DNA of 64,000 bases from an uncultured Acidobacteriota bacterium (lineage in GTDB: Bacteria; Acidobacteriota; UBA6911): positions 71,242 through 135,241 of the forward strand of contig CAWHCF010000044.1 of assembly GCA_963827655.1 (NCBI GenBank), read 5' to 3'. The position numbers were made by a program, and so were the translations under genes. Under the pieces are notes generated by a model. It was not told the DNA's origin. It saw only the letters and a program-made list of their open reading frames with translations, and ran no database searches. Shown here one piece after another: positions 6,310 to 54,497 of the stretch. Position 1 is the first letter of the stretch, and each line of letters starts with the position of its first letter.

Positions 6310-9300
6310 TCAGGGAAGCTCTATCCTGGCGTCGTTGTGTAGTGGTGAGGACGCCGGCATCGAATCGGGTCCCAGAGGAATCTCGACCGATTCGCCCGTG
6401 CGAGCCAGAAGCAAATATGCCGATTTAACCTTCAGGCCAAGAGCCCGAAGCGCTTTTTCATACGCCTGGACCTGGCCGGAGTACCGCTGGCTGAAGGAAC
6501 CGCGCCTCTCGTTCACTTCGGCCGGAATGATATCGGTTTTATAATCGACGATTACCCATTCACCCCCCTCTTCAAACAGGAGATCGACTTTCCCGGACTC
6601 AATCGGCGCAAGCTCTCCAGGCGCCCCCAAAGGGCGGACGAATGGAAGTTCCCGAATTACCTTGCCGGGCGAATTCTTGACCCGGCGAACGCGCGCCATC
6701 AACTCGGAATCGTAGCTGTTTCGAACCATCTCTTCCAGAAGCCGGGCCTCACTCCGCCCCAGATTGTGGCGTCGCGCGGCTGCGCGACTCGATTCGGCGA
6801 TACTTGCGACCTGGCAAAAATCCAGCGCGTCCATGGCCTGATGAAAGGCCAGCCCTAAACGAATCGCGCGGCCACGGGCGGTTTCAGCCAGGTTCGCCGC
6901 ATCCGGGTCATCCGCTGCCGCTTGAAAGCCGCTGGGAGCGCGAATATCCCTGGAGCGGGGCGTCTGGTCTCTTAACCGGATGACCTCCGCGTATTCGCGA
7001 CGGAGTCGTTCTGTTATATCGTCCGGCGCAGGTGAGCCGGCAGGTCTCGCTACCTCCACCGGCACATCGAGAATGCCGGTGTCGAGCACCTGCACCAATC
7101 CATCCGTGAGGGAAAGTTCCTTCAATCGTTCCCAAATCGGGCTCAGCCGGGACCTGCGCCACTCGTGGACCCATTTCTTCTCATGCTCAGCCCATCTCCA
7201 CCCCGTGTGGGTGGAGACGACCAGGTGGTCGCGCGCGCGTGTTAACGCGACGTACAGGAGCCTGATCAATTCTGCGTTCTCTCGTTTTCTGTCCCACTCC
7301 TGAAGCTGGCGCCAGCCGGCGGACTGCAGTTTCGACTCTCTGGAGCCGGCAGTCACCGCGTAAGTCTTCTGCTGGTGGGGATCCGCCAGAAAAGATTTCT
7401 GTCCGGGGTTTCTGGCGCCCCCGAGACCGGCGGCAATAACGATCGGGAAATCGAGTCCCTTCGCTTTATGAATGGTAAGGATCCGGACCGAGTCGCTCCG
7501 CTCTTCCATGATGCGGCTCTCGCTCTCGGCCAATTCCTCCTTGTCCAGTACCCCGAGCAGTTCGATGACCTGAGAGAAAGTCGTTTCCGTCTGGAGCCGT
7601 CGCAGCTCCCGAACCAGCTTACCGAGGTTGGCCAGCGACTGTAGCCCGCCCCAACGGGCCGCGAGCACCTCGCGAGCGCCGGTCTCGCGCAAAAGAGTTT
7701 CCAGGATCGCCGAAGCCGGCCTCTCGTGTCGCTGTTGATGGAGCTCGCGCAGAATCCGGAAGGGATGGTGCAGGCGAGAGCCGGCGGGAATTTCGTTGCG
7801 GTAGTCGAACGTGATTCCCTGCGTTCGACTCCTGAGCAAATCCTCGTCTGACAGGCCGAAGAATATCGATCGAAGAGATCCATAGACCGCCACGCGGTCA
7901 TTGGGATTAGCCACGGCGCGCAGAACGGTTGTGGCCGACGAAACTTCGCTTCGAGCATAGTAATATTTCCCGCCTTCGAGGACATAAGGTATTTCCGCCT
8001 GCCGTAGCGCTTCCTCGAGGACATCCACGCGCGAAAGGACGGGAAGCAGAATGGCAATGTCTTCGTAGTTCGGAACGCGCCGGGATTCAGGCCGTGAAGA
8101 TGACCGTTCGGCGACCAGCCATTTCTCGCTCCCCCGAATCTGTCGCACCAGCGCAACCAGACGCCGTGCTTCCCGGGCGATGAAGTCGCCCGCCGGGAAA
8201 GCCTGGTTGCGTTGATCGACTGGATCGGGCAAGAGATGGACCGATGACAAACCGGGTTCGTGGAGCCTGGCCGCGGATCCGAAGGCCAGGTATTCCGGCT
8301 GGTAACGGCCATCCTCCGGCTTTTTCATAACGCCCGCGAAAAGCGCGTCCACGAAGCGAAGAATCGAGGGTACGGAACGGAAGTTCGTGGTCAGCTGCAC
8401 TTGCTCCAACCCGCGCGCGGCGATTCTCTCTGTATCAAAAAGGTTGAGGTAGTTCTCGATGTCGGCGCCGCGGAAACGATAAATCGACTGTTTGGGATCT
8501 CCTACAAGGAAGAGGCGGCCAGGAGCGGGCTGGAGCTTCTCAATGTCGGTCTCTGTCAGATCCGGCGAAGAAAGAAGCAGTACGATCTCCGCTTGGATCG
8601 GATCCGTATCCTGGAACTCATCCACGAGAATAGTGGCGAACTTCTTCTGAAAATCATGCCGGACAGCGGGGCTTCTTGCGAGCAAGTCGCGAGCCGCCAG
8701 CAACTGGTCGTCAAAATCAAGCAGACCTTCGCTCCGCTTCTGCCCCTTCCATTCCGGAAGGAAGTCGCCGGCTAGCCAGAGCAACAACTCGTGCAGTAGC
8801 CGCTGCGCCGCCATTGAAGAAGCTTCGGTCGAAAAATCCTCGCATCTCTTCAAGAAGGATCGCACGCTTTCAAGTGTCTGGCTTCCACCCTTCCAGTTCT
8901 CGCGCGATCCGGCTGAGGCAGATCTTCTCGGAAAAACGCTGTATTCGGTCGATCCGTCCAGCCACGACGCGATCTGGTTGAGGTTGTCCGCTAACCTGTC
9001 TCTGCGATCAAGGACCAGCCGGGAATACTTTCGCGCCTCGGATGCCAGATCCAGCCGGCGCCGTCGTGCTTCTTCGTCTGTCATCGGAGCCTGCAGATCC
9101 AGCTTCTCGATAACCGCTGCCTGGAACCTCAGATTCCGGGCCAGCTCGCGGAGAGTATCCAGTCCCAAACCCGCTCGCAGGGCTCGTTCAAGCGGACCGC
9201 GGCGCTCCTTGATCGCACGATCGAGCCAGGCCTCCCAGACTCGCCTGAAAAAGAGCTCCGCGTGCGCATCGTCGAGCGCCGTAAACTGCGGATCCAGACC

Positions 9301-18258: not shown

Positions 18259-18789
18259 ATGAGCCCGTCAAGCCATGGCTTCCTGGTGATGGACGCCTCG
18301 CTCAAGCTGATTTATGCCAATGCTGAAGCCATCCATATCTTGGTCTACCCGGAAAATCCTCAAAAGGTAAAGTCGCTAGACAGCCTTCTCGCCGAGAAGA
18401 TCCGAACAGTCCTCCTCAAGCAACCGTCGTCACCGAAGGCCGGCTTCGTCGCCGAGCTCAGGTCGGGAAGGAGGCGCTACCTGTGTCGCGCATTTTCTCT
18501 TAATCCTTACTCGAAGAATCCTGGTGGCCAGGAAAGTCTGGCCATTCAGTTCGAACGAACCCGTCAAGTGACCTTGAACGGTTCCCAGATTGCCGAGAGA
18601 TTCAACTTGACCCCGCGGGAACAACAGACGCTCGAATACCTGATCCAGGGGCTGACCAGTAAGGAAATTGCAGACCGAATGCATATCAGCGTCAATACAG
18701 TGAAAGCCTTTCTCAGGCTGATCATGGTGAAAATGGGGGTCACGACCCGATCGGGAATCGTTGGCATGCTGTTCGAGGTCAGACCATAG
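18259..18789 (+). CDS. LuxR/GerE-family transcriptional regulator with an uncharacterised N-terminal domain (EpsA-like polysaccharide-locus regulator)
   Basis: C-terminal HTH LTPREQQTLEYLIQGLTSKEIADRMHISVNTVKAFLRLIMVKMGV. The N-terminal 110 aa carry no recognisable receiver or PAS signature. It sits divergently from the HAD gene, at the head of the polysaccharide locus. Confidence 0.8.
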   Translation: MSPSSHGFLVMDASLKLIYANAEAIHILVYPENPQKVKSLDSLLAEKIRTVLLKQPSSPKAGFVAELRSGRRRYLCRAFSLNPYSKNPGGQESLAIQFERTRQVTLNGSQIAERFNLTPREQQTLEYLIQGLTSKEIADRMHISVNTVKAFLRLIMVKMGVTTRSGIVGMLFEVRP

Positions 18790-18879: not shown

Positions 18880-19206
18880 TTGTCGCGGCCGATGAAGCCC
18901 CAGCAAGATCCGGACAGGCGCCAACACGCCCGGTACCCTCTAACGCGAGACCTGAAGATCCAGGTACTTCCTTTGCTCCGCTCCTCGAGTAAAAAGCGAG
19001 TGGAGATTCAGGGCCGGGTTCAAAACATTGGCGCCGGGGGCTTATGCCTTACCACCAGCCAGCCTCTTGAGGTCTACCGTCCCGTTTTGTGCGACATCCC
19101 TCTTTCTGCGGTCCCCGTCAAAATCCCGATCCTTATGCAGGTCCGCTGGGCTGTGAAGAGCTCAACCGGTGATCGTTTCAGAGTCGGCCTCCAGTTCCTT
19201 CTTTGA
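18880..19206 (+). CDS. Stand-alone PilZ-domain protein (putative c-di-GMP receptor)
   Basis: RxxxR motif (RRQHARYPL) and a D/NxSxxG-like motif (VQNIGAGGLCL) at PilZ-typical spacing. TTG start at 18880 (alternative ATG at 18892); AAAGGGG SD upstream. Confidence 0.65.
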   Translation: MSRPMKPQQDPDRRQHARYPLTRDLKIQVLPLLRSSSKKRVEIQGRVQNIGAGGLCLTTSQPLEVYRPVLCDIPLSAVPVKIPILMQVRWAVKSSTGDRFRVGLQFLL

Positions 19207-19860
19207 TCACGTTGGCGCTATAGAACAGGTGTCTGTTATGAAAGGGTTGATTCAGCGGGTGCGCAGCCGGAGAGAGTATCTAACCCGAATGGACTAACCC
19301 GCCAGGCTAATTCCTCCGGAGAGTTGAAATGTTCGGGGATGTGTCCGACTATAACGCAATACGCTTGATGATTAGTCGAGCACGACCCCGCTCAACAACG
19401 CCGTGAGGAAGGGGCATGAGGGTGCGAGACGCTGGAATTATTTAGACGATGGTTTTTGCATCAGGGAACTTGATTTATTCACTTGACGACGTAAGGGCAA
19501 GGTTGTTGTAATAAAGCACCCTCTCATCGCGCTGCCCTTGGGCAGCCTAATGCCCTGAATAAACCTGCTGGAGTTTTTCGCTCCGATCGTGCGGCTTTGA
19601 GGCCCGCCGTTTCGCATACCTAAAGGCACCATGTACGAGATCATTTTCTCCAGATCTACGCGCGGCTCCTGTTCGTACTGGTCCGGTAGGGGCCAAGAAA
19701 ACCATCGAGACGAGACCTGGGGGCTACAAGCGCGATCTGAAGCTCGGCCCAAAGAATTGACCGATGGTGAAACGTCCGGCATGGCACCTGGCACAATGAA
19801 CACAGAACCAGTAGCCGGCGGTTTGCGGTGGGATAGATCTCGGACTCTGGCGTTTTTTTT

Positions 19861-19878
19861 GCTTCCATCGATGGTAGC
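19861..19878. repeat. Palindromic element copy 1: GCTTCCATCGATGGTAGC (perfect 10-bp palindrome CCATCGATGG), preceded by a T8 run
   Basis: Seen directly. A near-identical copy lies 90 bp downstream. Candidate dimeric-regulator operator. Confidence 0.45.
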
Positions 19879-19950
19879 CCGTGCAAGAAAAAAGAAAATT
19901 GCAACTCGCGGAACGTTGGTGAATCAGCTTTACGGACTTTGAAGTTTTTC

Positions 19951-19970
19951 GTTTCCATCGTTGGTGATGC
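19951..19970. repeat. Palindromic element copy 2: GTTTCCATCGTTGGTGATGC (CCATCGTTGG), preceded by a T5 run
   Basis: Direct repeat of the 19861-19878 element (TTCCATCG[A/T]TGGT[A/G] shared), same orientation, 90-bp spacing. Confidence 0.45.
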
Positions 19971-20204
19971 GCAGTAAAAGGAACTTGAAACCATTGGTGT
20001 GTTATTGAATCAAGTTCCTCGATTCTCACTCGCTTCTGGTGTTTATTGGTTGGGTAAGAGGAATCCGGCCGCAGGGCGGATTTTCTCAGCCGACCGGGGC
20101 GAAAAGAGCTAAGATAGGGGATGGCGCGATGCCACACTTCATGTGGCTACTGGTAAAAGCGGAGCGCTGTCACCAAGATATCGAGTCTGCCTATGGGACT
20201 CAAA

Positions 20205-20217
20205 GGGCGGTAGTGCC
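20205..20217 (+). promoter_or_regulatory. ops-like element GGGCGGTAGTGCC (E. coli ops consensus GGCGGTAGCGTG), about 90 nt upstream of the RfaH/UpxY-like gene
   Basis: GGCGGTAG core at 20206-20213 on the coding (non-template) strand of the leader. 9/12 match to the RfaH recruitment site. Could be chance in a GC-rich genome. Confidence 0.3.
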
Positions 20218-20301
20218 TACTCCGGAACGGCAGTCGAGTTTGGTCCTTAGGTCGGAAAACAAAGAAAGGGCGGGGTTTTGCGTCCTTATGAAGGGGTTGC
20301 A

Positions 20302-20904
20302 ATGAACGCGCTCGTAAGCGGTTCCTGGTACGCCTTGCGAATCAAATCGCGTCACGAAAGGATCGTGGCCGCGGCCCTGAACGGCAAGGGATACGAGGTA
20401 TTTTTACCGCTTTATCGAGACCGGCGCCGCTGGTCCGACCGCATGAAAGAGGTCGAACTCCCCCTGTTCCCGGGTTATTTGTTCTGCCGGTTTGATGCGA
20501 TGAAGCGCCTCCCCATTCTCATGACCCCGGGAATTGTTCAGCTCGTCGGAGTGGGGAAAAGCCCGCATCCAATTGAAGAGACAGAAATTACTGCCATCCA
20601 GTCCATCGTGATTTCGAGGCTCAACGCGCAGCCCTGGCCCTATTTACAGGTCGGGCAAAAAGTCCGCATTGAGCAGGGACCACTTACCGGCCTGGAGGGA
20701 ATCCTAATTGCTTTGAAAAAAACGCATCGCCTTGTCGTCTCGGTTACGCTTCTCCAGCGTTCCGTTGCGGTGGAGGTGGATCATGATTGGGCGAGCCCAG
20801 TTTTGCCTGACCAGCCAGGGCGGGGAAAGGTTGCAGCTTCGGCTGCGACACATGTCGCCACCAGTAACGCGGTGTGGGCTTCGCCTGAGACAATGATACG
20901 GTAG
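20302..20904 (+). CDS. NusG-paralog specialised antiterminator (RfaH/UpxY/LoaP family), first gene of the polysaccharide operon
   Basis: NGN domain WYALRIKSRHERIVAAALNGKGYEVFLPLY ... ELPLFPGYLFCRFD (compare RfaH PLFPNYLFVEFD). KOW domain QVGQKVRIEQGPLTGLEGILIAL. AAGGGG SD 6 nt before the ATG at 20302. The track start 20278 is probably too early. Confidence 0.8.
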   Translation: MNALVSGSWYALRIKSRHERIVAAALNGKGYEVFLPLYRDRRRWSDRMKEVELPLFPGYLFCRFDAMKRLPILMTPGIVQLVGVGKSPHPIEETEITAIQSIVISRLNAQPWPYLQVGQKVRIEQGPLTGLEGILIALKKTHRLVVSVTLLQRSVAVEVDHDWASPVLPDQPGRGKVAASAATHVATSNAVWASPETMIR

Positions 20905-20948
20905 GCAAGTGCCTGCCACTTTTTACCTGGTACTTTTGAGGAAGAGTT

Positions 20949-21998
20949 ATGAGGATCGCGAAGTTGAGTAGCCTGCTGGTTTTTGTGCCCCTACTGGGCC
21001 TTACCCTGGGCTTAGCCTTTCAGCAAAGGGTTTCCGAGATCAAGCCTGAGCCCCAGCAACCGGTACCCCAGCAAGCGGTAACCGAGACCAAGCCTGAGAA
21101 CGCGCCTGCGGCGATGAAAGTCGAGAATCGCAAGTACATCCTGGGACCCGACGACGACATCACTATCCAGGCGTTAGATGCTGATGAGATTTCCAACAAG
21201 CCCGTCCGCATCGACACCAGCGGAAATATCAATCTACCGCTGGTAGGGCGACTGCGCGCGGCCGGTCTCACGGTCGAGCAGCTCGAAGCTGAGATTGCGG
21301 CACGTCTCCGCACCTATATCCAGCAGCCGCATGTGGCGATCAGCGTCACCAACTTTCGCAGCCAGCCCGTGTCGGTGCTCGGAGCGGTGCGCAGCCCTGG
21401 AATTCACCAGCTCCAGGGACGAAAGACCTTGTTCGAGATTCTTTCCATGGCCGGGGGTCTTGCGTCGGAAGCGGGACACAGTGTAAAGATCACCCGCCAG
21501 ATGGAGTGGGGACCCATTCCCCTCCCCTCCGCCACAACGGATCCTACAGGGAAGTTCAGCATCGCTGAAGTCAAGCTGAGGGCGATTCTGGAAGCCAGGA
21601 ATCCTGAAGAGAATATCCTGATCCAGCCTCACGATATTATTTCGGTCCCGCGCGCCGAACTGGTCTACGTGGTCGGGCAGGTTCGCAGACCCGGTGGGTT
21701 TGTCCTGAACGACCGTCAGAGCATTTCAATCCTCCAAGCTCTGGCGATGGCCGACGGGTTGACCAATATTTCGTCTGCAAAGAATGCCAGGATCATTCGC
21801 TCCACTGTCGGCGAGAATCGCGTCGAGATTCCGGTCAACCTGAAGTCGATTTTCGAGGGCAAATCGTCGGACGTTGCTCTGAAGGCGGATGATATTCTCT
21901 TCATTCCCACCAACGTGGCAAAGGGAGTATTCTTCAGCACCATTCAGACGGCAATTTCGGCTGCCACGTCCGCAGTCATCTACGGCGGTATGTACTGA
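20949..21998 (+). CDS. wza: Polysaccharide export outer-membrane protein, Wza/EpsA family (Poly_export + SLBB domains)
   Basis: Signal peptide; Poly_export block YILGPDDDITIQALDADEISNKPVRIDTSGNINLPLVGRLRAAGLTVEQLEAEIAARL; two SLBB-like repeats (VSVLGAVRSPG / VYVVGQVRRPG). Confidence 0.9.
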   Translation: MRIAKLSSLLVFVPLLGLTLGLAFQQRVSEIKPEPQQPVPQQAVTETKPENAPAAMKVENRKYILGPDDDITIQALDADEISNKPVRIDTSGNINLPLVGRLRAAGLTVEQLEAEIAARLRTYIQQPHVAISVTNFRSQPVSVLGAVRSPGIHQLQGRKTLFEILSMAGGLASEAGHSVKITRQMEWGPIPLPSATTDPTGKFSIAEVKLRAILEARNPEENILIQPHDIISVPRAELVYVVGQVRRPGGFVLNDRQSISILQALAMADGLTNISSAKNARIIRSTVGENRVEIPVNLKSIFEGKSSDVALKADDILFIPTNVAKGVFFSTIQTAISAATSAVIYGGMY

Positions 21999-22127
21999 TA
22001 TTGATCGCTCAATGCTCCCTGTGACGACGGCTCATCCAACTCTCAAGGAAGGCTTCGCGACGGAGCTTTCGATTCCAACTGAGGCAAGGTTCTAAAAACG
22101 GTACCCAGTGCAGGCAAGGAATTTTTC

Positions 22128-24452
22128 ATGAAATATCTTAAGCAGCTTCCAGGTAGTCAGACTCAAGAGATTGCTGTGCGCCATGTTGAGCCACAGCCCG
22201 CCCCCTATTATCCCCCGCAGCTCAATCGGGGCGATGCGGGTTTCACCGACGATTTCAGCCGCTGGCTGGAATACTGGCAGATCGTCCGGCGACACAAGGC
22301 CGTTGTGGTGCTACTGGCTCTGTTGGGTGGTGTGGGCGCGTTTCTTTACACGCTCTACCAGACGCCGGTTTATCGGGCCTATGCCACCCTGGAACTTCAG
22401 GGAATCCAGGAGCCCTTCCAGAGTGTTCGATTGTTGAATGAGGGGAATCCCTACGTTCAGACCCAGATCAAGCACCTGGAAAGCCGTACCCTTCGCCAGC
22501 GGGTCACTTCCAAAATGAAACCGCCGGAAGGACCGGTGGTTTCCTTTGCGGATCCCCTCCGGAGATTGCGCACGTCTCTCGGTCTCCCCGCACCCTCGGG
22601 AATACCCGGATGGAAGGAAGCGGTCGGGATGGCCGCGGGAAGCGTGAGAGTACTGGCCGAACATGATAGCCAGGTCGTCACCCTCCAGTGCGACTCGACC
22701 GACGCCAAGGTCGCCGCCGATTACATCAATCTGTTGGCCGAAGAATATATCGAGCAGACTTCGGAAGAACGCTGGAAGACCTACCAGAGTACCGGCGATT
22801 GGCTTACTCGCGCCCAGGCAGAACTGAAGAAGAAGCTCGAGGATTCAGAGAACGAGCTGGCCGACTACGCGCGCGCTGAAAATCTGCTGTTTACTTCGGA
22901 AACACAGAGCGTAGCCGAAGAGAAGCTAAAGCAACTACAGGGAGAACTCGCCCGAGCCGCAGCCGATCGTATCGGCCGGCAGTCTCAGTACGAGACTACA
23001 GTCTCGAGTCAACCGGAGGCTTTGCCTGCGGTGCTTGATCACGGTCCTATCAGTCATTACCAGATGCAACTCGCGGACCTCAATCGGCAAATGGCCGAAT
23101 TGACCTCAGCTTTGACGCCGGACCACCCCAAGGTTAAGCGGCTGCAGGCTCAGATCGACGAGGTGCGGGCAGGTCAAAAAAGGGAGCAGGGTAACATTCT
23201 CAGGCGTATTCGAATCGAATACGATACTGCCTTACGCCGTGAGAAGCAGCTCGAGAATGACTTCGCGCGTCAGTCCAGAATAATCGAAGAGCAGGGAGAA
23301 AAGCTGATCCGTTACAAGATCCTCAAACGCGAGGTCGACAGCAACAGGCAGCTCTACGAGGCCACGCTGCAAAAGGGGAAGGAAGCCAGTATTGCTTCGG
23401 CACTCCAGGCCAGCAACGCCCAGGTGATCGATTCTGCGACTCCGCCAGGACTACCCTATAAACCGAGCCTTCCTCTACACTCGGCTTTCGGCCTGGTTTG
23501 CGGTTTATTCTCCGGTGTTTTGTTGGCTTTCGTGCTCGAGCGCTCGAATGCCAGCATCCAGATGCCGGGTTTTCTGCCCTTCTACCTCAATGTGCGAGAG
23601 CTGGGAGTTATTCCTTCCGCGAAAGCGGATCCCGAAATGCGCCACTTGAGCAAGAAGTGGCAGCCGTTCGCCCTCCTCGGATCGAGCAAGCGCGACGCCG
23701 GAGCCCCCGGAAATGGCAAAGATCCTCGACGGGACGATGCCGAGTCCGTGGAACTCGTTACCTGGACGCGGAAGCCGTCGCTTATGGCGGAATCGTTCAG
23801 GGCCACGATGGCGTCGATCCTGTTCTCGGGGCAGAATGGAAACCGGCCTCAGATCATCATTCTCACCAGCCCGTCCCCCAAAGACGGGAAGAGCACCATC
23901 ATCAGCAACCTGGCCATCGCCATGGCCGAGATCAATCGACGCGTGTTGCTCATCGACGCCGACATGAGAATACCCCGGCTCCACAAGATCTTCGACATCA
24001 CCAATAGCTGGGGGCTGAGCGATGTGCTCTACGATCGGATTCCGATTGAGGACTACCCCGAAGAATCAATCGTGCGCAAGACCCAGATTCCCAATCTCAG
24101 CCTTTTGCCCAGCGGCCCGCGTCGCGTGAGCATTTCAAGCCTGCTCTATTCTCACCGGATGGCAGAGCTGCTGTTCCGATTCAGGAGGGACTTTGAAACC
24201 ATCCTGATTGACACGGCTCCCATGCTACAGATCTCCGACGCGCGCGTCCTGGCTCGCCTGTCCGACGGCGTCATCCTGGTATGCCGCGCCGGGCACACCA
24301 CACGTGACGTGGCGATCGCGGGCATCAACTGTTTTGAAGAGGACGGCACGCCTGTGCTCGGCACGATTCTGAACAACTGGGATCCCAACGTCACAGGCTA
24401 CAAGGCCTATTCCGCCTACTCCGAGTATTGTCGCAGCTCGCAAGCCTCTTAG
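22128..24452 (+). CDS. wzc: Polysaccharide co-polymerase / tyrosine autokinase (Wzc, GumC/EpsB-like BY-kinase)
   Basis: 774 aa. N-terminal Wzz domain with two TM segments and long coiled coils. C-terminal kinase with Walker A (SPSPKDGKST) and Walker B (LLIDADMR). C-terminal tyrosine cluster YKAYSAYSEY. Confidence 0.9.
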   Translation: MKYLKQLPGSQTQEIAVRHVEPQPAPYYPPQLNRGDAGFTDDFSRWLEYWQIVRRHKAVVVLLALLGGVGAFLYTLYQTPVYRAYATLELQGIQEPFQSVRLLNEGNPYVQTQIKHLESRTLRQRVTSKMKPPEGPVVSFADPLRRLRTSLGLPAPSGIPGWKEAVGMAAGSVRVLAEHDSQVVTLQCDSTDAKVAADYINLLAEEYIEQTSEERWKTYQSTGDWLTRAQAELKKKLEDSENELADYARAENLLFTSETQSVAEEKLKQLQGELARAAADRIGRQSQYETTVSSQPEALPAVLDHGPISHYQMQLADLNRQMAELTSALTPDHPKVKRLQAQIDEVRAGQKREQGNILRRIRIEYDTALRREKQLENDFARQSRIIEEQGEKLIRYKILKREVDSNRQLYEATLQKGKEASIASALQASNAQVIDSATPPGLPYKPSLPLHSAFGLVCGLFSGVLLAFVLERSNASIQMPGFLPFYLNVRELGVIPSAKADPEMRHLSKKWQPFALLGSSKRDAGAPGNGKDPRRDDAESVELVTWTRKPSLMAESFRATMASILFSGQNGNRPQIIILTSPSPKDGKSTIISNLAIAMAEINRRVLLIDADMRIPRLHKIFDITNSWGLSDVLYDRIPIEDYPEESIVRKTQIPNLSLLPSGPRRVSISSLLYSHRMAELLFRFRRDFETILIDTAPMLQISDARVLARLSDGVILVCRAGHTTRDVAIAGINCFEEDGTPVLGTILNNWDPNVTGYKAYSAYSEYCRSSQAS

Positions 24453-26995: not shown

Positions 26996-28117
26996 GTGAC
27001 TTCCATTCGCTCAGTTCTGGCCCTGATCGCCTCCCTGGCCGGTTTGCTTCTGGCGGCTCCAATTGTCGTGCTTGGTCTCCCCTTCTGGGCGGTAGCCTGG
27101 CTGACCAAGCGAATCACCGGATTGCTGGAACCGGAGATCGTGCTCTGGGACCAGCTCATAAGATTCGACCCGACCTTCGGCTGGAAGCCGAAGGCGAACC
27201 TGAATACTCACTGCGTTTCAGAGTTGGGAGGCGAGGTCTTTCACGTAACGACCGATTCTGAGGGATGGCCGGGAGCGTCCACGATCGACGAGAGCTCAAT
27301 CACGGTCTTCGGCGACTCCTTCGCTTTCGGTTACGGAGTGAACGCTGAGGCCTTGTTTTCCGAGGTCAATCCTAAACTCCGCGTCAAAGCCATCGGAGCT
27401 CCCGGCTACAACATGGTTCAGGAAGTGATGTGGATGGATCGATTGTCGTCCCATCTCAGAGGGAAGCTCGTCGTTTGGTTTATTTATGTTGGCAACGATC
27501 TGTACGAGAACCTGCAGCCAAACATGCAGGATTACCGAACGCCTTTTGTGCGCCGTGCCGGTTCGACCGGTGAGTGGCAGATCGTCACCAGCCATCTCAG
27601 CTCGTCGAGGTGGTGGCCGTATCACGTGAATGACAAGTTGAGGTCCGCTCAGAGATTCGCCGCAATCTTCGGGACATCCTTCTTGTCAGAGCGGGTCTAT
27701 TCGGCCTGCGAGTTTCTGATCAGAAAAGGAAACAATATCTGTGCGCACGCCGGCGCCTCGCTGGCAGTCACTACAATACCCATCATAGATCAACTGAGCT
27801 TGAATGGCTGGAAACAGCGAATATCTGAGCTGGGATATCCGGAATCTCTCGACCTCAACCAGCCGGACCGTAAAATCGCCGAAATCTGCTCGACGTTGGG
27901 AGTCCGCTTCGTCGCAGGAAAGGACCACCTCAATGCCCGGCATTTCATTCCGGCAGACGGTCATTGGAATGAAAAGGGGCATCAAAGAATAGCGGATCTG
28001 CTGGCCGAGCTTCATCAACAGCGGCACCCGGCGGCCCGGAACGATACTGATCCGGAACTGCGTCTCTCACACGCGCAAAAACGCCCGACGGGCACGTTTC
28101 AGTGGCGCACCGATTGA
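26996..28117 (+). CDS. SGNH/GDSL-fold hydrolase or acyltransferase with N-terminal membrane anchor (paralog 1)
   Basis: Block I VFGDSFAFGYGV (GDS nucleophile), block V DGHWNEKGH (DxxH). GTG start at 26996 chosen because the track ORF overlaps the previous gene with no internal ATG. N-terminal hydrophobic anchor LALIASLAGLLLAAPIVVLGLPFW. Confidence 0.7.
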   Translation: MTSIRSVLALIASLAGLLLAAPIVVLGLPFWAVAWLTKRITGLLEPEIVLWDQLIRFDPTFGWKPKANLNTHCVSELGGEVFHVTTDSEGWPGASTIDESSITVFGDSFAFGYGVNAEALFSEVNPKLRVKAIGAPGYNMVQEVMWMDRLSSHLRGKLVVWFIYVGNDLYENLQPNMQDYRTPFVRRAGSTGEWQIVTSHLSSSRWWPYHVNDKLRSAQRFAAIFGTSFLSERVYSACEFLIRKGNNICAHAGASLAVTTIPIIDQLSLNGWKQRISELGYPESLDLNQPDRKIAEICSTLGVRFVAGKDHLNARHFIPADGHWNEKGHQRIADLLAELHQQRHPAARNDTDPELRLSHAQKRPTGTFQWRTD

Positions 28118-35424: not shown

Positions 35425-35842
35425 AATCGCTGAACCGCTTTACCTCTATCGCATCCAGCCGAATTCGATGTGCCGAAGCACAGACTTTCGGCGCCAGGGA
35501 CTTCGAGCGCGCGCCAAGTATGCCCCTGAAACCGTCGATCCTTCGGCACAAGCCAGGGACGAAGTCAGCGCCTGGGCTTTTATTCTAGGGCTGGAGCTCT
35601 TGGCCCGGAATGGACCGGGTGTCCGCCAGGCGGCGGACTACCTCGAAGCAAACAGGAACAAAGGCGAATTGGGCCAGATGGCTGAGCTACTTCCCGACGG
35701 CTGGGCTATCAATACTACAGATTGTGGGACTGCTCCGGGTTCCGGTACCGGCACAGGCCCGATTGGGAAACTCTTTTCAAGCCTCTTATGGAACCGGAGC
35801 CGCGCGAAATCCCCGGACGTACGCTCGTTGAAACTTGTTAGT

Positions 35843-36928
35843 ATGAAAAGTGCTTCGGGCGAAATCTCCTCATTCGTCGGATCAAAAGTGAACACCAATA
35901 GCAATCAACCCATAGAGAACCAGGACACTTCGTGCCTGATCGTCGCAGAGGTGGCTCAGGCACACGACGGCAGCCTCGGCATGGCCCACGCCTATATAGA
36001 TGCGGCAGCAAACGCCGGAGCCGACGCAATCAAGTTCCAGACCCATATCGCCGCGGCGGAATCGACTCCAGGAGAGCCGTGGCGCGTAAAGTTCAGCCCG
36101 CAGGACGCGACCCGCTACGACTACTGGAAGCGAATGCAGTTTACCGAAGACCAGTGGCGAGGTCTCAAGCGCCACGCTTCGGAGCGCGGCTTGAAGTTTC
36201 TCAGCTCCCCTTTTTCTCTCGAGGCTGTACAGCTCCTCAATCGTGTAGGAGTCACAGCCTGGAAGGTGGCTTCCGGCGAGGTTAACAACACCTCGATGTT
36301 GCAGTGTATGGCTGCCACGGGTCTGCCCATACTTCTGTCGACCGGGATGAGTCCTCTGCCCGAAATCGATTTCGCTGTAGATCGAGTGAAGCAATATGGC
36401 CTGCCCCTTACGCTGCTGCAGTGCACCACGGCCTACCCCTGTCCGCCGGAAAAGGTCGGGCTGAACCTGATACCGTTTTTCCGGGCGCGTTATGGCTGCC
36501 AGGTCGGCCTGTCGGATCACTCGGGAACCATCTACGCCGGTCTTGCGGGCGCCGTTCTTGGGATCGCTGTTCTGGAAGTGCACGTCACTCTCAGCCGGGA
36601 GATGTTCGGACCCGACGTTCCGGCCTCGATTACGACCACCGAGCTGCGCCAACTGGTCGCCGGCATCCGCTTCATAGAGAAGATGATGGCGAATCCGGTC
36701 GACAAGGATGCCATGGCAGTGGAGATGGCGCCTTTGCGGAACCTCTTTACCAAGAGCATTGTTCTCTCATCGGACTTGCCTGCGGGCACCGTGCTGCGAA
36801 AAGAACACTTGACCATCAAGAAGCCAGGAACCGGCATTCCCGCCGACAGGCTACCCGAACTCGTAAGCCGCACGCTAAAACGAGCGGTAACCGCTAACAG
36901 CTTGCTTTCGGAAGACGACCTTGCCTAA
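35843..36928 (+). CDS. neuB: NeuB/PseI/LegI-family nonulosonic (sialic-type) acid synthase with C-terminal SAF domain
   Basis: CLIVAEVAQAHDGSLGMAHAYIDAAANAGADAIKFQTH (NeuB N-terminal signature), then LSDHSG, and a SAF domain (VLSSDLPAGTVLRKEHLTIKKPG). The track ORF starts at 35468; its first 125 codons are GT2 run-on and linker, so Met at 35843 is used. Confidence 0.8.
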   Translation: MKSASGEISSFVGSKVNTNSNQPIENQDTSCLIVAEVAQAHDGSLGMAHAYIDAAANAGADAIKFQTHIAAAESTPGEPWRVKFSPQDATRYDYWKRMQFTEDQWRGLKRHASERGLKFLSSPFSLEAVQLLNRVGVTAWKVASGEVNNTSMLQCMAATGLPILLSTGMSPLPEIDFAVDRVKQYGLPLTLLQCTTAYPCPPEKVGLNLIPFFRARYGCQVGLSDHSGTIYAGLAGAVLGIAVLEVHVTLSREMFGPDVPASITTTELRQLVAGIRFIEKMMANPVDKDAMAVEMAPLRNLFTKSIVLSSDLPAGTVLRKEHLTIKKPGTGIPADRLPELVSRTLKRAVTANSLLSEDDLA

Positions 36929-38180
36929 TTCGCTACGCCGTAAAATATGTGTTGTTCTGGTTGACCGGGCTAACTATGGCCGCCTGAAGCCGGTCATGAA
37001 GGCTATCGCAGACCGGCCAGAGCTTGAACTCCAGGTTCTTGCCGCCGGAACGATGGTCCTGGAACGCTTTCAGCAGCCTGTGCACGTTGTGAAACAGGAC
37101 GGCTTCTCTGTGGACGGCGAGATCTACATTGAACTGGAAGGCTCCACCCCGGCCACCATGGCAAAATCCGTCGGTTTCGGCGTCGTGGAGTTCGCAAGCG
37201 AGTTCCAGCGGCTCAAACCGGATCTGGTGCTGGTCATCGGCGATCGATACGAGGCGCTGGCGGCCGCTATCGCTGCTGCGTATATGAACATCTGTATCGC
37301 CCACATACAGGGTGGCGAGGTTTCCGGATCGATTGACGAAAGCGCGCGCCATGCGATCACACGATTTGCGCATTTCCATTTTCCGAGCACGAGGCGTTCC
37401 GCGGAGTATCTGGTTCGCATGGGAGAAAATCCGAAGACGATTCTCGCCCTAGGGTGCCCCAGCAGCGATATCGCTCGCGACCTCGATCGAACGCTTCCGC
37501 CCTCAGCGATCAATGCCCTGGGCAGCGGCGCGGCGATCGATCTCTCCGATGCGTTTCTCCTGGTGGTCTTTCATCCCACGACCACGGAATACGGAGGAGA
37601 GCGCCGGCAGATGGAGGAGGTTCTCGAGGCCCTCGATAACATCCAGCGTCAGACCGTTCTCCTCTGGCCGAACATTGATGCCGGAGCCGATCACATCAGC
37701 AAGGCGATTCGAACCTTTCGCGACCGGGTGAAACCAGCCTGGCTCCATGTCATAACGAACCTGAGCCCGGAGGATTATCTGAAGGTGCTGGCCCATGCCT
37801 CCTGCGCCGTCGGGAACTCCAGCAGCTTTGTGCGCGATGCCAGCTATTTCGGAACGCCGGTGGTTTTAGTGGGAAACCGGCAGGATGGACGCGAGACCGA
37901 CCAGCACGTCATGCCCGTGCCTCCTCTGGCCGCGGAGATCACTGCCGCAATACGCGAGCAACTTGCGCATGGACCCTATGCTCCCAGCAGCCTTTACGGA
38001 GATGGACATGTCTCCGAACGAATTGCCGAGGCGCTCAGCCGCCTCACTCCCTATGTTCAGAAGCGCCTGAGCTACATGGGGCAAGGTAAAGCCGAGTTTG
38101 TCGAGCGCGCTTCCCAAACCACGGATCTCAAATCGAGCGACGATCTTGCCTCAAGCTGGGCGCTGCATTCTTCGGATTAG
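36921..38180 (+). CDS. neuC: UDP-N-acetylglucosamine 2-epimerase (hydrolysing), NeuC family
   Basis: KICVVLVDRANYGRLKPVMKAI ... DLVLVIGDRYEALAAAIAAAYMNICIAHIQGGE ... HFHFPST, the NeuC/Epimerase_2 pattern. TTG start; overlaps the neuB stop by 8 nt. Confidence 0.8.
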   Translation: MPNSLRRKICVVLVDRANYGRLKPVMKAIADRPELELQVLAAGTMVLERFQQPVHVVKQDGFSVDGEIYIELEGSTPATMAKSVGFGVVEFASEFQRLKPDLVLVIGDRYEALAAAIAAAYMNICIAHIQGGEVSGSIDESARHAITRFAHFHFPSTRRSAEYLVRMGENPKTILALGCPSSDIARDLDRTLPPSAINALGSGAAIDLSDAFLLVVFHPTTTEYGGERRQMEEVLEALDNIQRQTVLLWPNIDAGADHISKAIRTFRDRVKPAWLHVITNLSPEDYLKVLAHASCAVGNSSSFVRDASYFGTPVVLVGNRQDGRETDQHVMPVPPLAAEITAAIREQLAHGPYAPSSLYGDGHVSERIAEALSRLTPYVQKRLSYMGQGKAEFVERASQTTDLKSSDDLASSWALHSSD

Positions 38181-38274
38181 CGGGATCGCGCCTTTGGAGT
38201 GCGCAAGCTTGCTTGCGCCTTGTGCAACGGCAGCTTGCTGCCGGTTGTAAGAAATGAATGGGATCAGCGCTCGA

Positions 38275-38982
38275 ATGAAGGTTCTGGCAATTGTACCTGC
38301 GCGCGGCGGATCGAAAGGGATTCCGCGCAAGAATATCGCGCCCCTCATGGGAAAGCCGCTCCTGGCCTATACGGCCGAAGCGGCCCGGGCCGCCGGGCGT
38401 TTGACCCGGGCGCTTCTCTCAACTGAGGACGAAGAGATCGCTCGCGTAGGACGACAGTATGGTCTGGACGTGCCGTTTCTGCGGCCGCCGGAACTGGCGC
38501 GCGACGATACTCCGACGATCCCCGTATTACAGGACGTGGTTCGGAAGCTTGAAGCCGTGGGGGATCGTTACGATGCAATCTTCGTGCTCCAGCCGACCAA
38601 CCCGCTCCGGCGAGCGCAAGACATCGACGGCGCCATTGAGCTCCTGGAACGCACAGGCGCAGATTCAGTGATCTCGTTCGTTGATGTAGGGGAAAAGCAT
38701 CCGGCCCGAATGAAGATCGTTACTGCCGAGGGCAGGGTCATGAATCCGTCTTTCGCCGAGCAATTCGAGGGTCAGCCCAGGCAGGCTCTCTCGAAGCTTT
38801 ATCTGCGCGAGGGCTCGATCTACCTTACCCGCAGGTCCGTACTCATGGATCAAAGCTCGATTCAGGGATGCGACTGCCGGGCCTGGCTCATCCCCGAGGA
38901 ACGAGCGTGCAACATTGATAACCCGTTTGACCTTTTTCTGGCTGAACAGATCATGAGGTACCATGCCGTCCAAGCGACCTAG
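38275..38982 (+). CDS. neuA: N-acylneuraminate (CMP-nonulosonate) cytidylyltransferase
   Basis: MKVLAIVPARGGSKGIPRKNI (CTP_transf_3 P-loop) and the conserved FVLQPTNPLR block. Start at 38275 preferred over 38254. Confidence 0.85.
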   Translation: MKVLAIVPARGGSKGIPRKNIAPLMGKPLLAYTAEAARAAGRLTRALLSTEDEEIARVGRQYGLDVPFLRPPELARDDTPTIPVLQDVVRKLEAVGDRYDAIFVLQPTNPLRRAQDIDGAIELLERTGADSVISFVDVGEKHPARMKIVTAEGRVMNPSFAEQFEGQPRQALSKLYLREGSIYLTRRSVLMDQSSIQGCDCRAWLIPEERACNIDNPFDLFLAEQIMRYHAVQAT

Positions 38983-42604: not shown

Positions 42605-43813
42605 GTGCTCACGGTGGTCTCAAAGAGTTTCGCTCCTCAGGTGTCAGGGACGTCTATTCTGTTGGCGAACCTTCTGTCGGGCTATCCAGGCACGCTGAGC
42701 GCAGTTGCTGGATCTAACCTGTATGGCAAATCCGATCCTTCGTTCCTGCCCCCCTGTCCAACGAAGTATCTTGCTTTGCCCCGGATTCTAGCCGGCGTGT
42801 ACGATCGCCTGAGAATAAAATCTCCAGCGACAACCTGCCGCGCCCTTCGACCATCCGTTCGAAGAGTGTTGAGAAAACTTGGCACAAGCGTCGTTTTCGG
42901 CGCGTACCCCTGCGATGACTACTTTGTGGCGACCTTTCTTGCCGCGCGCGATCTGGGCCTCCCTTTTTACGCCCATATGCACGATCTCTGGATAGAGAAC
43001 CTGACTCCCGGCTCGCCTCTAGCTCGCTTCGCCGAAAAATGGGAGCCCATCATAATCCGAGAGGCCCGGCGGGTGCTGTGCATGACCGAAGCCATGCAGA
43101 AGTACTACGAAAACAAGTACGGGATACGAACAGATCTGCTGCCTCACACTATTCGAGAACAGGACTATTTGAACGTCACTCCGAATGCGCCGCCGGCAAT
43201 GCCCGCACCGACAGTCCTGTTTGTCGGGGCGGTGAGCCCGCCGATGAACCTCGACGCGCTCAAGGTGCTGGCCGCCGCATCCGAGCTCCTGCCTTCGGGG
43301 TACGAACTGCTGTTTTGCACATCCATGGACCTTCAAGCTCTGAAACAACAAGGTATCCAATCGAGTCGTTTGCGGGCCCAGTATGTCTCTCGAGCGGAGG
43401 TGCAACGTCTTCAGTCCGGAGCCCATGTTCTGATTGCGCCTCTGTCCCACAAGAATGGTTCCATCGAGGAAGTTCGCACCGTTTTCTCCACCAAACTGTG
43501 CGAGTACCTGGTTTCGGGACGTCCCATTATTGTGTTTGCGCCGGAGGATTCGTACCACGCCGAATCCGCAAGAAAGAATGGCTGGGCTTACGTCGTCACG
43601 GAAGATTCACCTGCCGCGCTTGCGGAAGCCATCGTGAAAGTAGTGACGAAGGAAGACCTGGCCGCCGGCCTGGTTCGCGGAGCACTGCAAGAGGCTTACT
43701 CCAGGAGCGCAAGGCGGCATGCGGAGCGCCTGCATGAATGGGTTCTTGAAGACACTCGCACTGCATGGTCACTCGAAGGCCAGCGGTCGGGGAAACAATT
43801 GGTTGCTTCCTGA
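42605..43813 (+). CDS. GT-B glycosyltransferase (family 4/1-like)
   Basis: C-terminal domain with the E..STKLCEYLVSGRPIIVF motif (EX7E-type). GTG start. Confidence 0.7.
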   Translation: MLTVVSKSFAPQVSGTSILLANLLSGYPGTLSAVAGSNLYGKSDPSFLPPCPTKYLALPRILAGVYDRLRIKSPATTCRALRPSVRRVLRKLGTSVVFGAYPCDDYFVATFLAARDLGLPFYAHMHDLWIENLTPGSPLARFAEKWEPIIIREARRVLCMTEAMQKYYENKYGIRTDLLPHTIREQDYLNVTPNAPPAMPAPTVLFVGAVSPPMNLDALKVLAAASELLPSGYELLFCTSMDLQALKQQGIQSSRLRAQYVSRAEVQRLQSGAHVLIAPLSHKNGSIEEVRTVFSTKLCEYLVSGRPIIVFAPEDSYHAESARKNGWAYVVTEDSPAALAEAIVKVVTKEDLAAGLVRGALQEAYSRSARRHAERLHEWVLEDTRTAWSLEGQRSGKQLVAS

Positions 43814-43848
43814 AGTGGCAGGAAGTTTCCGGCACCGAGCAAGGCCAC

Positions 43849-45160
43849 ATGATACGCCCACAGAATAGATTCGCCGCCCCCAGGAACATGGCAGGAAGAG
43901 CCTGGTGGATTGCACCAACCAGAACGGCTTCAATTATCGGAAGTCCGGTGAGGATCGTTTCTGAAAAGAGCATTCCCACCAGCGTGCGCTGGCTTTTGCT
44001 GCTGTTCGTTTTCTCGATGCCGTTCGAGATGTATCCCTCGAGATTCACATCAGGCTCGCTCTCCCTGGCGAAAATTGCCGGCGCCTTGTTTATCGCCGTT
44101 TACCTTACCCACTACAACCCCTTCTCTCGGACTCGATCCCTCCCCCGTTTTCTCGGGCCATGTGGTGGTTCGCCGGATATCTCGCCGTTTTCGCACTGAA
44201 CGGCTTCTTTCTCGCGCCGGGATTGTTTGACAGTCTTTCTTTCGCGTTTTCTCACAATGGTGCAGCTGGTGGTCTTCTTCTGGATCGCTTCCGATCTGCT
44301 GAGAGACGAAGGCCTGGCAAGAAAAGCCTTTCAAACTTATGCGCTAGCCACATCTGCCGTGGCGCTCGGAATGCTTGTTGGTCTTACCGGATTATCCGTG
44401 ACATACAAGACCAACGTCGGAGCAAGAATGTCATCGATGGGGTTCAACCCGAATACCCTGTCGGTCATAATAGTTCTGGCTGTGCTTGATACTGATGGGT
44501 TTGTACCTCATCTCGCCTCCGCTGCGATTACAGGAAGGTCTGGCTCGTGGCCTTGGCCCTGCCTCTACTTCCGGCTCTTGTAAGCACCGGGCTCCCGCAA
44601 CGGAATCGTGATTTTCGTCTTAGGATTCCTGGTCTATCTGCTGCCCTCACGCCGCTATAGAGGCAAGCCGACGGTGCCGATCCTGGCCATGCTGGCGATA
44701 GCCGCCATCGTCTACTTCATTTCCCAGAATTCGACGACATTAACCCGCTTCCAGCAGACTTACGAAAGAGGGGACTTCTCGGGACGGCTGGGTATTTACA
44801 CCGAAGCAATCGAAATGATCTCCGAGCAACCCCTTTTCGGTTGGCGGCCCGTGGAGTTCTGGTATGAGTTTGGAAGACGTGTGTACGGGTTTTGGCGGAT
44901 AAGGGATGCTCACAACACCTTATCTGCATCTGTTGCTGGAAGTCGGCTTCGCCGGGGCTATTCCTTTCATGATTGGACTCTGGTTCTGCGCCCGCGCAGC
45001 GTGGAGAGGGCGCAACGGCACTTTTGGCCTTCTTCCTCTCGCGCTGGTGCTGGCGGTGCTCGCTGGCAGCATGTCAGGCACAGATATCGCGCGCAAGCAT
45101 CTATGGTTTGTCCTGGCAATTGCGGTGGCTACTGAACCCGTCGTTGCCAGGCGCCGGGCA
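43849..45160 (+). pseudogene. Wzy/O-antigen-ligase-like polymerase, fragmented into at least 4 ORFs (43765..44199, 44227..44583, 44608..45135, 44906..45265)
   Basis: Multi-TM pieces. The diagnostic Wzy_C block R.AHNTYLHLLLEVGFAGAIPF is split across two frames (...WRIRDAHNTLSAS in one, MLTTPYLHLLLEVGFAGA in the other). Confidence 0.6.
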
Positions 45161-48060: not shown

Positions 48061-48064
48061 AGCG

Positions 48065-50034: not shown

Positions 50035-50061
50035 CTCAACCATTTCAACGGATCAATAATC

Positions 50062-54290: not shown

Positions 54291-54497
54291 GGGCAATACC
54301 TCAAAAAACGTCGAAAAGGGCTTCATTTCAAAGAATTAGATGCGATTGCTTAAAAGCTGAGTGGCGGTCACCGATTTTTACTCAGCGTGCCGCAACAAAA
54401 CCGGCCTTTGCGCATCTTCGCAGCAGTTGGAGCGTTAGGACCAAAGACTGCCGCCGAGACTCTAAGCAACACGAAGAAAAAAGGAGAGTTTGAACCG

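Follow-up and report, generated by a model that had tools for sequence, protein, structure and literature searches.

An ops-like element accompanies a UpxY-family NusG paralog at the head of acidobacterial polysaccharide loci: a candidate antitermination module

Introduction

How specialised NusG paralogs (NusG-SPs) find the operons that they serve is an open question for most of these proteins, which have been well studied in a few lineages only (RfaH, UpxY and LoaP). The question is raised by a 64,000-nucleotide stretch of DNA from an uncultured Acidobacteriota bacterium (contig CAWHCF010000044.1; hereafter the window), in which an open reading frame (ORF) encoding a NusG paralog stands at the head of a long co-directional polysaccharide gene array. 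Here we assign this paralog to the UpxY family and describe in the leader of its gene a conserved element that contains the core of the Escherichia coli RfaH ops site and offers a sequence-defined candidate recruitment site. RfaH has been regarded as mostly limited to Proteobacteria, in an account in which Acidobacteriota are not mentioned (PMC7593976), and the literature searched gave no earlier account that connects Acidobacteria, or PEP-CTERM and exosortase loci, with paralogs of the NusG or UpxY kind.

Results

The paralog is a member of the UpxY family

The paralog ORF, located at 20302-20904 on the forward strand, encodes a protein of 200 aa. An alternative in-frame TTG start is present at 20278; in three relatives, all of 200 aa and with identities of 99%, 96% and 87%, the gene caller had assigned the ATG at 20302 as the start. 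The Pfam NusG NGN model (PF02357) matched residues 8-99 (E 3.6e-19), and ELPLFPGYLFCRFD, the segment that a sequence-only reading of this DNA had quoted as the NGN hallmark, was found at residues 52-65. The Pfam KOW model gave no match to the paralog at E <= 0.01. Evidence for a KOW domain came from the full-length alignment of residues 9-161 with the NCBIfam UpxY, RfaH and NusG models, from the alignment with the KOW domain of E. coli NusG, and from a five-stranded β-barrel at residues 120-166 predicted by AlphaFold2 with a predicted local distance difference test score (pLDDT) of 80-89. Both domains that the sequence-only reading had claimed were borne out in this way. Its further claim of a specialised rather than a housekeeping paralog agrees with the family models, as the protein scored 112.2 bits with the UpxY-family model NF033644 (cutoff 100; model span 1-161 of 164) and only 45.3 bits with the housekeeping nusG model TIGR00922 (cutoff 135.7), and secE and rplK are absent from its neighbourhood. 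Its label of ‘RfaH/UpxY/LoaP-type’ stood for the UpxY part alone, the protein remaining below the cutoffs of both RfaH models (TIGR01955, 86.8 versus 144.5 bits; NF006534, 54.9 versus 124) and of the LoaP model (NF033641, 65.4 versus 125). Judged by these profile matches, the ORF is a UpxY-family NusG-SP among the UpxY, RfaH and LoaP families.

AlphaFold2, run on a 51-sequence alignment, yielded a model (mean pLDDT 79) consisting of the NGN domain, a β-barrel KOW domain (118-166) and a disordered, variable tail (167-200). Within the NGN domain, residues 38-49 form a basic β-hairpin, YRDRRRWSDRMK, whose RRRWSDR is the conserved basic β-hairpin of the acidobacterial paralog family. Full-length Foldseek matches of the model were NusG and the activated, RNA polymerase-bound form of RfaH, and autoinhibited RfaH matched over the NGN domain alone. 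The best sequence match in the PDB was PrfaH of IncX plasmids (9ik0, E 2.2e-7), again restricted to the NGN domain. The residue aligned with RfaH E48, which is involved in autoinhibition, is L53, in an alignment whose E. coli numbering agrees with the residues named in PMC5995543. An RfaH-like all-α state of the KOW domain, which the sequence-only reading had raised, found no support in the predicted barrel, the NGN-only match to autoinhibited RfaH or the leucine at the E48 position, although fold switching would still be compatible with a barrel predicted by AlphaFold2.

The paralog was matched by at least 7,846 database proteins (clusters). The closest relatives share 58-99% identity across the first ∼165 residues, followed by the variable tail. 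The few matches that bear a name and 21 of the 22 genome loci described below belong to metagenome-assembled genomes of Acidobacteriota (Acidoferrales/Acidoferrum, Bryobacterales, Terriglobales and Sulfotelmatobacter), and the family is apparently one mostly of uncultured soil Acidobacteriota.

An ops-like element with an upstream box is conserved in the leader

The bipartite motif TGGGACT-N5-GGCGGTAG was found once in the 64 kb window, at 20194-20213, 96 nt before the ATG of the paralog gene; the complete leader sequence from 20194 to 20217 reads TGGGACTCAAAGGGCGGTAGTGCC. Its 3' part (20206-20213) reproduces without a mismatch the core of GGCGGTAGCGTG, the ops site of E. coli RfaH, and it opens a 12 nt ops-like element, GGCGGTAGTGCC (20206-20217, +), whose positions 1-8 are the E. 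coli core and whose predicted pause position is C20216. The non-template strand of the element can be drawn as the hairpin GCGGTAGC, that is GCGGTAG(C/T). The upstream box TGGGACT (20194-20200, +) ends 5 nt before the core and, counted from the predicted pause, would occupy approximately positions −23 to −17.

The conservation of this element was followed in 22 genome loci, 21 acidobacterial and one from Bacteroidales, that had been picked by protein similarity alone. In all 22 the NusG-SP homolog heads a co-directional array, with an intergenic region of 250-1,000 nt on its 5' side, and the annotated downstream genes are polysaccharide genes (Bac_transf, GT4, Wza, Wzz and Wzc). The exact GGCGGTAG was present on the coding strand in 14 of them, 52-111 nt before the codon for residue 9, and in three others it was replaced by GGCGTTAG (L010, L012 and L013 carry GGCGTTAGC). 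The remaining acidobacterial loci, which form a subfamily of 40% protein identity, contain GGCGAAGC with a hairpin of the Bacteroides GCG-N-AGC type; these four (L017-L020, from Sulfotelmatobacter and Acidobacteriaceae) read TG(T/G)GACT-N5-GGCGAAGC about 110 nt 5' of residue 9. Thus, the element was present in 21 of 21 acidobacterial loci, as the exact 8-mer in 14 and as GCG-loop-AGC variants in seven, and the only genome locus without it was that from Bacteroidales. In every acidobacterial locus the upstream box, with the consensus T[G/T]GG[A/G][C/G][T/G], was located exactly 5 nt before the core. The loop of the element (GT, TT or A) seems to track the NusG-SP subfamily. Position 11 varies between the window, L024 and L025 (C, T and C, respectively) and is always a pyrimidine.

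Other copies of GGCGGTAG, in the window (26182, −; 27088, +) and in related loci, were discarded as candidates because all of them lack the TGGGACT box. One of these deserves mention as a separate observation: a second perfect 12-mer ops consensus, GGCGGTAGCCTG (27088-27099, +), is situated ∼38 nt into a membrane-protein ORF (∼27050-28117), 6.8 kb past the leader site. The chance expectation for such 12-mers is ∼0.06 per strand in 64 kb; the copy is also found in L023, which is uninformative because L023 is 99% identical to the window. A search for a conserved RNA pause hairpin 5' of the leader motif found no covarying stem.

Motif copies in metagenomes mark NusG-SP genes and other polysaccharide operons

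Contigs of the Joint Genome Institute (JGI) metagenomes were searched for TGGGACT-N5-GGCGGTAGC, a pattern that leaves ops positions 10-12 free, and at least 122 instances were obtained in 120 stretches. Seven of these had too little downstream sequence to be judged. Among the 115 evaluable instances, 79 were followed 28-280 nt downstream by a gene of the NusG-SP family (E 1e-5 to 1e-91), and 36 had no such gene within 1.2 kb downstream. At 71 non-redundant sites the free positions agreed with ops, position 10 being T in 72%, position 11 T in 92% and C in 8% (a pyrimidine in 71 of 71), and position 12 G in 54%. The nTG of positions 10-12 was stronger still at the non-coding sites that no NusG-SP gene follows: over all 43 instances without a NusG-SP hit further on (the seven short ones added to the 36), 72% had G at position 12. 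The family consensus GGCGGTAGCTTG matches ops at 12 of 12 motif positions and fits the 12-mer GGCGGTAGnnTG.

Approximately 26-30 of the sites with no NusG-SP gene are non-coding and head polysaccharide or exosortase operons. On nine contigs the motif is followed by genes for a 115-aa protein, a Wzc-like kinase, the exosortase EpsH, EpsI (DUF3485) and a GT1 glycosyltransferase, and other such operons open with Bac_transf, asparagine synthase (AsnB), GT1, Wzy_C, Wza or sugar oxidoreductases. Several contigs show further arrangements: L104 has a site before its NusG-SP gene (898) and a second one 4.7 kb downstream (5638), in L072 the NusG-SP gene is flanked by motif copies, L036 has tandem copies 54 nt apart (8309-8383), and in L100 the motif (3077) occurs only after the NusG-SP gene. 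The element is not specific to one locus and is common to many, which suggests RfaH-like action in trans besides cis, and on these sequence grounds the NusG-SP probably acts in trans on a small regulon in this lineage, as RfaH does. Such trans-type sites were seen in other contigs; the window shows the cis arrangement only.

Canonical σ54 promoters (TGGCAC-N5-TTGC) were found 20-50 nt 5' of the box at nine of 143 sites, with 0.7 expected (among them L001:9840-9860, L053, L075, L089, L104:5580-5600, L118 and L132). Where they occur, the ops-like pause would fall ∼30-60 nt into the transcript, which puts the motif in the early transcribed region. We also considered TGGGACT itself as a σ70 −10 element and rejected it: a TTGACA-like sequence (at least five of six matches) at 14-20 nt was found at none of 69 cis sites (1.8 expected) and at four of 30 trans sites (0.8 expected), so that a −35 element at a fixed distance is not enriched overall.

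The ∼115-aa protein, which has no Pfam match and no homolog in the window, recurs in related loci. It is ribbon-helix-helix (RHH)-like at its N-terminus (KPRxRLVxFRxSxxEYxxLxxxCxxxGARSxSDxAR). Its gene comes first after the motif in exosortase operons (L073:2838-3185, L102, L076, L083, L145, L030, L051, L078 and L039) and directly follows the NusG-SP gene in L103, L106, L101, L091 and L055, a position that recalls UpxZ.

Other features of the leader

The leader is a non-coding region of 1,095 nt (19207-20301, +) between the stop codon of a PilZ gene (19206) and the ATG of the paralog, in line with the 1.1 kb leader of the sequence-only reading. Compared with L025 it is 81% identical in nucleotide sequence, and the coding sequence of the paralog 83%. 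A 58-codon upstream ORF (20129-20305), called as a gene in relatives, was dismissed as non-coding, its substitutions being spread over the three codon positions as 10/10/8 versus 17/15/72 in the coding sequence of the paralog. Rfam models, including the JUMPstart and Acido motifs, gave no credible match either in the window at gathering thresholds or in the leader at E <= 5, and a tRNA scan found none.

Two promoter candidates, both putative and deduced from their sequences, are conserved in L023-L025. A σ70-type candidate at 19483-19512 (+), recognised by eye only, consists of TTGACG, an 18 nt spacer and (TGt)TGTAAT; the scan tool, which demands an A at −10 position 2, did not call it. A σ54-type candidate, TGGCGT-N5-TTGC, lies at 19848-19862 (+), has the GG-N10-GC spacing and is the sole leader site with at most two mismatches to TGGCAC-N5-TTGC. 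It overlaps the first copy of a direct repeat, CGGACT(C/T)TG..GTTTTT..TTCCATCG(A/T)TGGT, the two copies of which (19841-19875 and 19932-19965) are 90 nt apart.

The sequence GGAACTTGA occurs three times in the leader (19460-19482 and 19980-20023), with all copies conserved in L023-L025. One pair forms a local 9 bp hairpin (19980-20018), and the distal copy at 19460-19482 is part of a 23 nt inverted repeat, 78% complementary, whose other arm is 518 nt away. These copies may bind a regulator or form an RNA structure. Nothing spoke for an invertible promoter between the repeat arms 19460-19482 and 20001-20023: the orientation is the same in all four relatives, no recombinase gene is present nearby and the local hairpin already accounts for one arm.

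Between the stop codon of the paralog and wza, a terminator-like hairpin, GGTAGGCAAGTGCCTGCC followed by ACTTTTTACC (20900-20927, +), is kept in L023 and L024 apart from loop changes, and could make wza expression depend on the NusG paralog. As a family-wide feature such a terminator was rejected, being present in 10 of 96 loci versus three of 96 shuffled controls, and in close relatives only.

Organization of the polysaccharide locus

Downstream of the paralog, wza (20949-21998, +; Poly_export and SLBB domains) starts after 45 nt and encodes the polysaccharide export channel; it is followed by wzc (22128-24452, +; Wzz, GNVR and P-loop kinase), encoding the tyrosine-kinase co-polymerase, and by a co-directional polysaccharide array (24563-63126, +) recognised through profile matches of the window proteins. 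The array comprises genes for a carbamoyltransferase, PGA_cap, FemAB, two GT2 glycosyltransferases, NeuB, a UDP-GlcNAc 2-epimerase, a CMP-sugar cytidylyltransferase, GT4 and Wzy_C, as well as a Wzm/Wzt ABC exporter, UbiA, a GmhA-type SIS protein, a nucleotidyltransferase-HAD fusion, epimerases, a GHMP kinase, methyltransferases and a short-chain dehydrogenase/reductase. The forward-strand genes run to 63126, over ∼43 kb, with gaps of ∼100-800 nt between genes, which confirms the sequence-only reading of wza and wzc directly after the paralog and a long co-oriented run behind them. Its proposal of a dedicated elongation module that includes the leader is likewise supported, by the conserved ops-like element (20194-20217) that accompanies the family across Acidobacteriota.

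Export systems of different types are mixed within the array, Wza/Wzc/Wzy-type genes occurring together with ABC (Wzm/Wzt)-type genes (20949-24452, 35468-38982, 49284-51333 and 54387-58842). It also contains a nonulosonic-acid module (NeuB, 2-epimerase and CMP-transferase) and a heptose-nucleotide module (GmhA, HddC/GmhB and HddA), and two or more polysaccharide pathways may be placed under one leader. The genes for the Wzy_C polymerase, a protein of no known kind, the GHMP (HddA-like) kinase and DUF4910 are each broken up, their overlapping ORFs lying in more than one frame (43765-45135, 47641-48908, 57807-58842 and 60838-62375). In L023, whose locus is 99% identical, other genes are split, namely wzc and the carbamoyltransferase gene; as the split genes differ between the two, the splits are probably indel errors of long-read assembly and not pseudogenes. 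No match to the UpxZ Pfam family was found among the window proteins scanned.

On the same strand 5' of the leader are genes for a LuxR/GerE-family regulator (18259-18789, +; Pfam GerE, E 2.1e-16) and a PilZ-domain protein (18880-19206, +; Pfam PilZ, E 1.2e-8; kept in close relatives). The former, with a weak EpsA-like helix-turn-helix match (TIGR03020 EpsA, 33 bits, below cutoff), is kept 5' of the NusG paralog in L023, L024 and a third contig and is likely the initiation-level regulator of the locus; the PilZ protein is possibly a cyclic di-GMP (c-di-GMP) receptor. The pair is conserved in the window's close relatives only and suggests a c-di-GMP-linked control of initiation on top of the control of elongation.

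Discussion

A proposed mechanism and its weak points

We consider it probable that the UpxY-family NusG-SP is an operon-specific elongation or antitermination factor for the array that it heads and that it uses an RfaH-type ops site; a dedicated read-through switch for this locus is likely. Transcription would start somewhere in the 1.1 kb leader. When RNA polymerase reaches 20206-20217, the non-template strand would form the GCGGTAG(C/T) hairpin and the enzyme would pause at the pyrimidine of ops position 11 (C20216), allowing the NGN domain to recognise the paused complex through the exposed hairpin. The paralog would probably also contact the TGGGACT box, about one helical turn upstream, a contact proposed because UpxY of Bacteroides is reported to touch upstream duplex DNA. 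It would then displace housekeeping NusG, travel along with the polymerase and suppress pausing, termination and polarity through its own gene, wza, wzc and ∼40 kb beyond. What is observed is the family membership, the order of the genes and, for the motif, its conservation, its position, its strand and its sequence logic; from these we infer processive antitermination over 43 kb, including the pausing, the binding and the single transcript that it would entail. As the site is located 5' of the factor's own gene, the circuit would be positively autoregulated, and as further copies of the motif precede polysaccharide and exosortase operons that lack a NusG gene, the factor probably acts in trans as well. 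Whether Acidobacteriota possess an RfaH-like regulon built on a UpxY protein, with one shared landing site (the box plus the GCGGTAGC hairpin and pause) serving the factor's own operon in cis and unlinked exosortase or exopolysaccharide (EPS) operons in trans, appears to us evenly poised.

Several observations weigh against this antitermination mechanism. RfaH contacts ops through K10, H20, R23 and R73, which align with K15, A25, G28 and P76 of the paralog, so that one of four is kept; if the paralog reads the element, it uses other residues. The element of the window has T9 and C11-C12 rather than C9 and T11-G12, and in E. coli the exchange G12C abolishes the U11 pause, yet RfaH is still recruited (PMC5995543). 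The mean folding energy of the sequence 5' of the motif (−12.7 kcal/mol versus −11.7 in shuffled controls) hints only faintly at a pause hairpin. Of the 36 sites that no NusG-SP gene follows, approximately 8-10 are internal to long ORFs and have the appearance of fortuitous matches. The two promoter candidates are as far as 330 and 690 nt from the motif on its 5' side, and the array has gaps of 200-800 nt that could house internal promoters, so that the 43 kb may be covered by more than one transcript.

Alternative explanations

The motif could be taken for a σ54 (−24/−12) promoter instead of an elongation signal. It has exactly the GG-N10-GC spacing (TGG...N...GGC), its TGGGAC resembles TGGCAC, it is situated 30-280 nt upstream of the first genes of operons, and PEP-CTERM/exosortase systems are known to use σ54-dependent regulators. 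We nevertheless judge this very improbable, as four mismatches to the σ54 consensus are invariant (position 4 has G instead of C, position 7 has T instead of G, −14 has G instead of T, and the GC is followed by a G), another nine bases 3' of the GC, invariant or strongly conserved, would be left unexplained although the motif matches ops at 12 of 12 positions, and in the 40%-identity subfamily three of four loci have TGTGACT, without the essential GG. Furthermore, canonical promoters are present as separate elements 20-50 nt upstream at nine sites, so that σ54 promoters in these organisms look standard and the motif is downstream of them. Alternatively, the motif could be the operator or RNA target of a different regulator of polysaccharide operons that merely co-occurs with the NusG paralog, such as the LuxR/EpsA-like protein, the RHH-like 115-aa protein or an RNA-binding factor. 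This would agree with the motif heading operons with no NusG gene downstream, with the small RHH-like protein being often encoded first after it, and with the absence of most DNA-reading residues of RfaH. It is unlikely in view of the loop of the GCG..AGC hairpin (GT, TT or A), which changes with the NusG-SP subfamily, and of the ops identity that reaches the pause-defining pyrimidine at position 11; moreover, the element is strictly strand-specific and asymmetric, whereas LuxR or RHH operators are usually palindromic or directly repeated, and the LuxR and PilZ genes are kept only in close relatives of the window.

That the paralog is simply the housekeeping NusG, with which it shares the NGN and KOW architecture, has a negligible probability given its TIGR00922 score, the absence of secE, rplK and rplA from its surroundings and its head position in polysaccharide loci. 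It is conceivable that a cis-acting paralog loads without sequence recognition, for example by virtue of a high local concentration that co-transcriptional translation would give, and that the motif is only a strong elemental pause site; motif positions 1-2 and 10-12 fit the consensus pause, and an ‘ancestral cis’ model has been discussed for NusG paralogs (PMC7819879). We regard this as quite improbable, since bases 3-8 (CGGTAG) are invariant though pausing in E. coli does not require them (PMC5995543), and the sites with no adjacent NusG gene argue for action in trans.

Implications

If Acidobacteriota do possess such an RfaH-like regulon, NusG-SPs in at least three phyla would have the ops hairpin as a universal docking signal, either ancient or invented more than once, and the regulation of exopolysaccharides in soil bacteria could become predictable from sequence. 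For acidobacterial metagenomes, the motif is a simple mark of where exopolysaccharide, capsule and exosortase operons start, and it suggests a lever on the production of EPS, a process with effects on the aggregation of soil and on carbon storage.

Comparison with known systems

The UpxY/opsX system of Bacteroides, reportedly described by Chatzidaki-Livanis et al., resembles the acidobacterial one in several respects. The paralog passes the UpxY model, is encoded by the first gene of a capsule or EPS operon, has in its NGN domain a basic β-hairpin (RRRWSDR) as in class-1 UpxY, and is preceded, tens of nucleotides before its start and in its own leader, by an element that is bipartite, with a GCG..AGC hairpin and a conserved stretch at the place expected for upstream duplex DNA. 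The Bacteroides system, but not the NCBIfam definition of the UpxY family, is characterised by UpxZ; the window differs in this, as no UpxZ partner was found among the proteins scanned and wza follows directly. Further differences are that one motif is common to many loci and genera here, in contrast to the locus-specific opsX variants, that copies of it also head operons with no NusG-SP gene, that no invertible promoter is evident, and that the hairpin loop is of the E. coli type, GCG-GT-AGC, save in the 40%-identity subfamily with its GCG-N-AGC. In Bacteroides, opsX is located in the leader of the upxY gene itself and comprises a non-template hairpin, of the GCG-N-AGC type in class 1, and upstream duplex DNA (Saba et al. 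2024, PMC11685472).

LoaP of Firmicutes and TaA of Myxococcus are likewise NusG-SPs encoded next to the long biosynthetic operon that they control. LoaP, which controls polyketide operons, has been proposed to recognise a nascent RNA hairpin; the paralog differs from it in its score with the LoaP model, and no conserved RNA hairpin of that kind was found here. PrfaH of IncX plasmids (PDB 9ik0) is a NusG/RfaH-like factor encoded by the first gene of its operon, with an ops-like site in its own leader between promoter and start (PMC11880322), and is in these features alike, whereas it is a protein of the RfaH lineage, and the operon that it serves is one for conjugation, on a proteobacterial plasmid and with no link to polysaccharides.

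With E. coli RfaH and ops (JUMPStart) the acidobacterial system shares the identical core GGCGGTAG, long polysaccharide operons as targets, a pyrimidine at the pause position, the residue equivalent to K10 and, as sites with no NusG-SP gene suggest, several operons served in trans. In the E. coli element, U11 is the position of the RNA polymerase pause, which a TG dinucleotide induces (PMC5995543). In contrast to RfaH, the paralog scores below the RfaH cutoffs, is encoded in cis at the head of its target operon and not as a stand-alone cistron, has a KOW domain predicted as a β-barrel and not as an α-hairpin, is associated with the additional TGGGACT box, and belongs to the phylum Acidobacteriota. 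An identical ops core combined with mostly different reading residues bears on whether the recognition of ops is ancestral or convergent.

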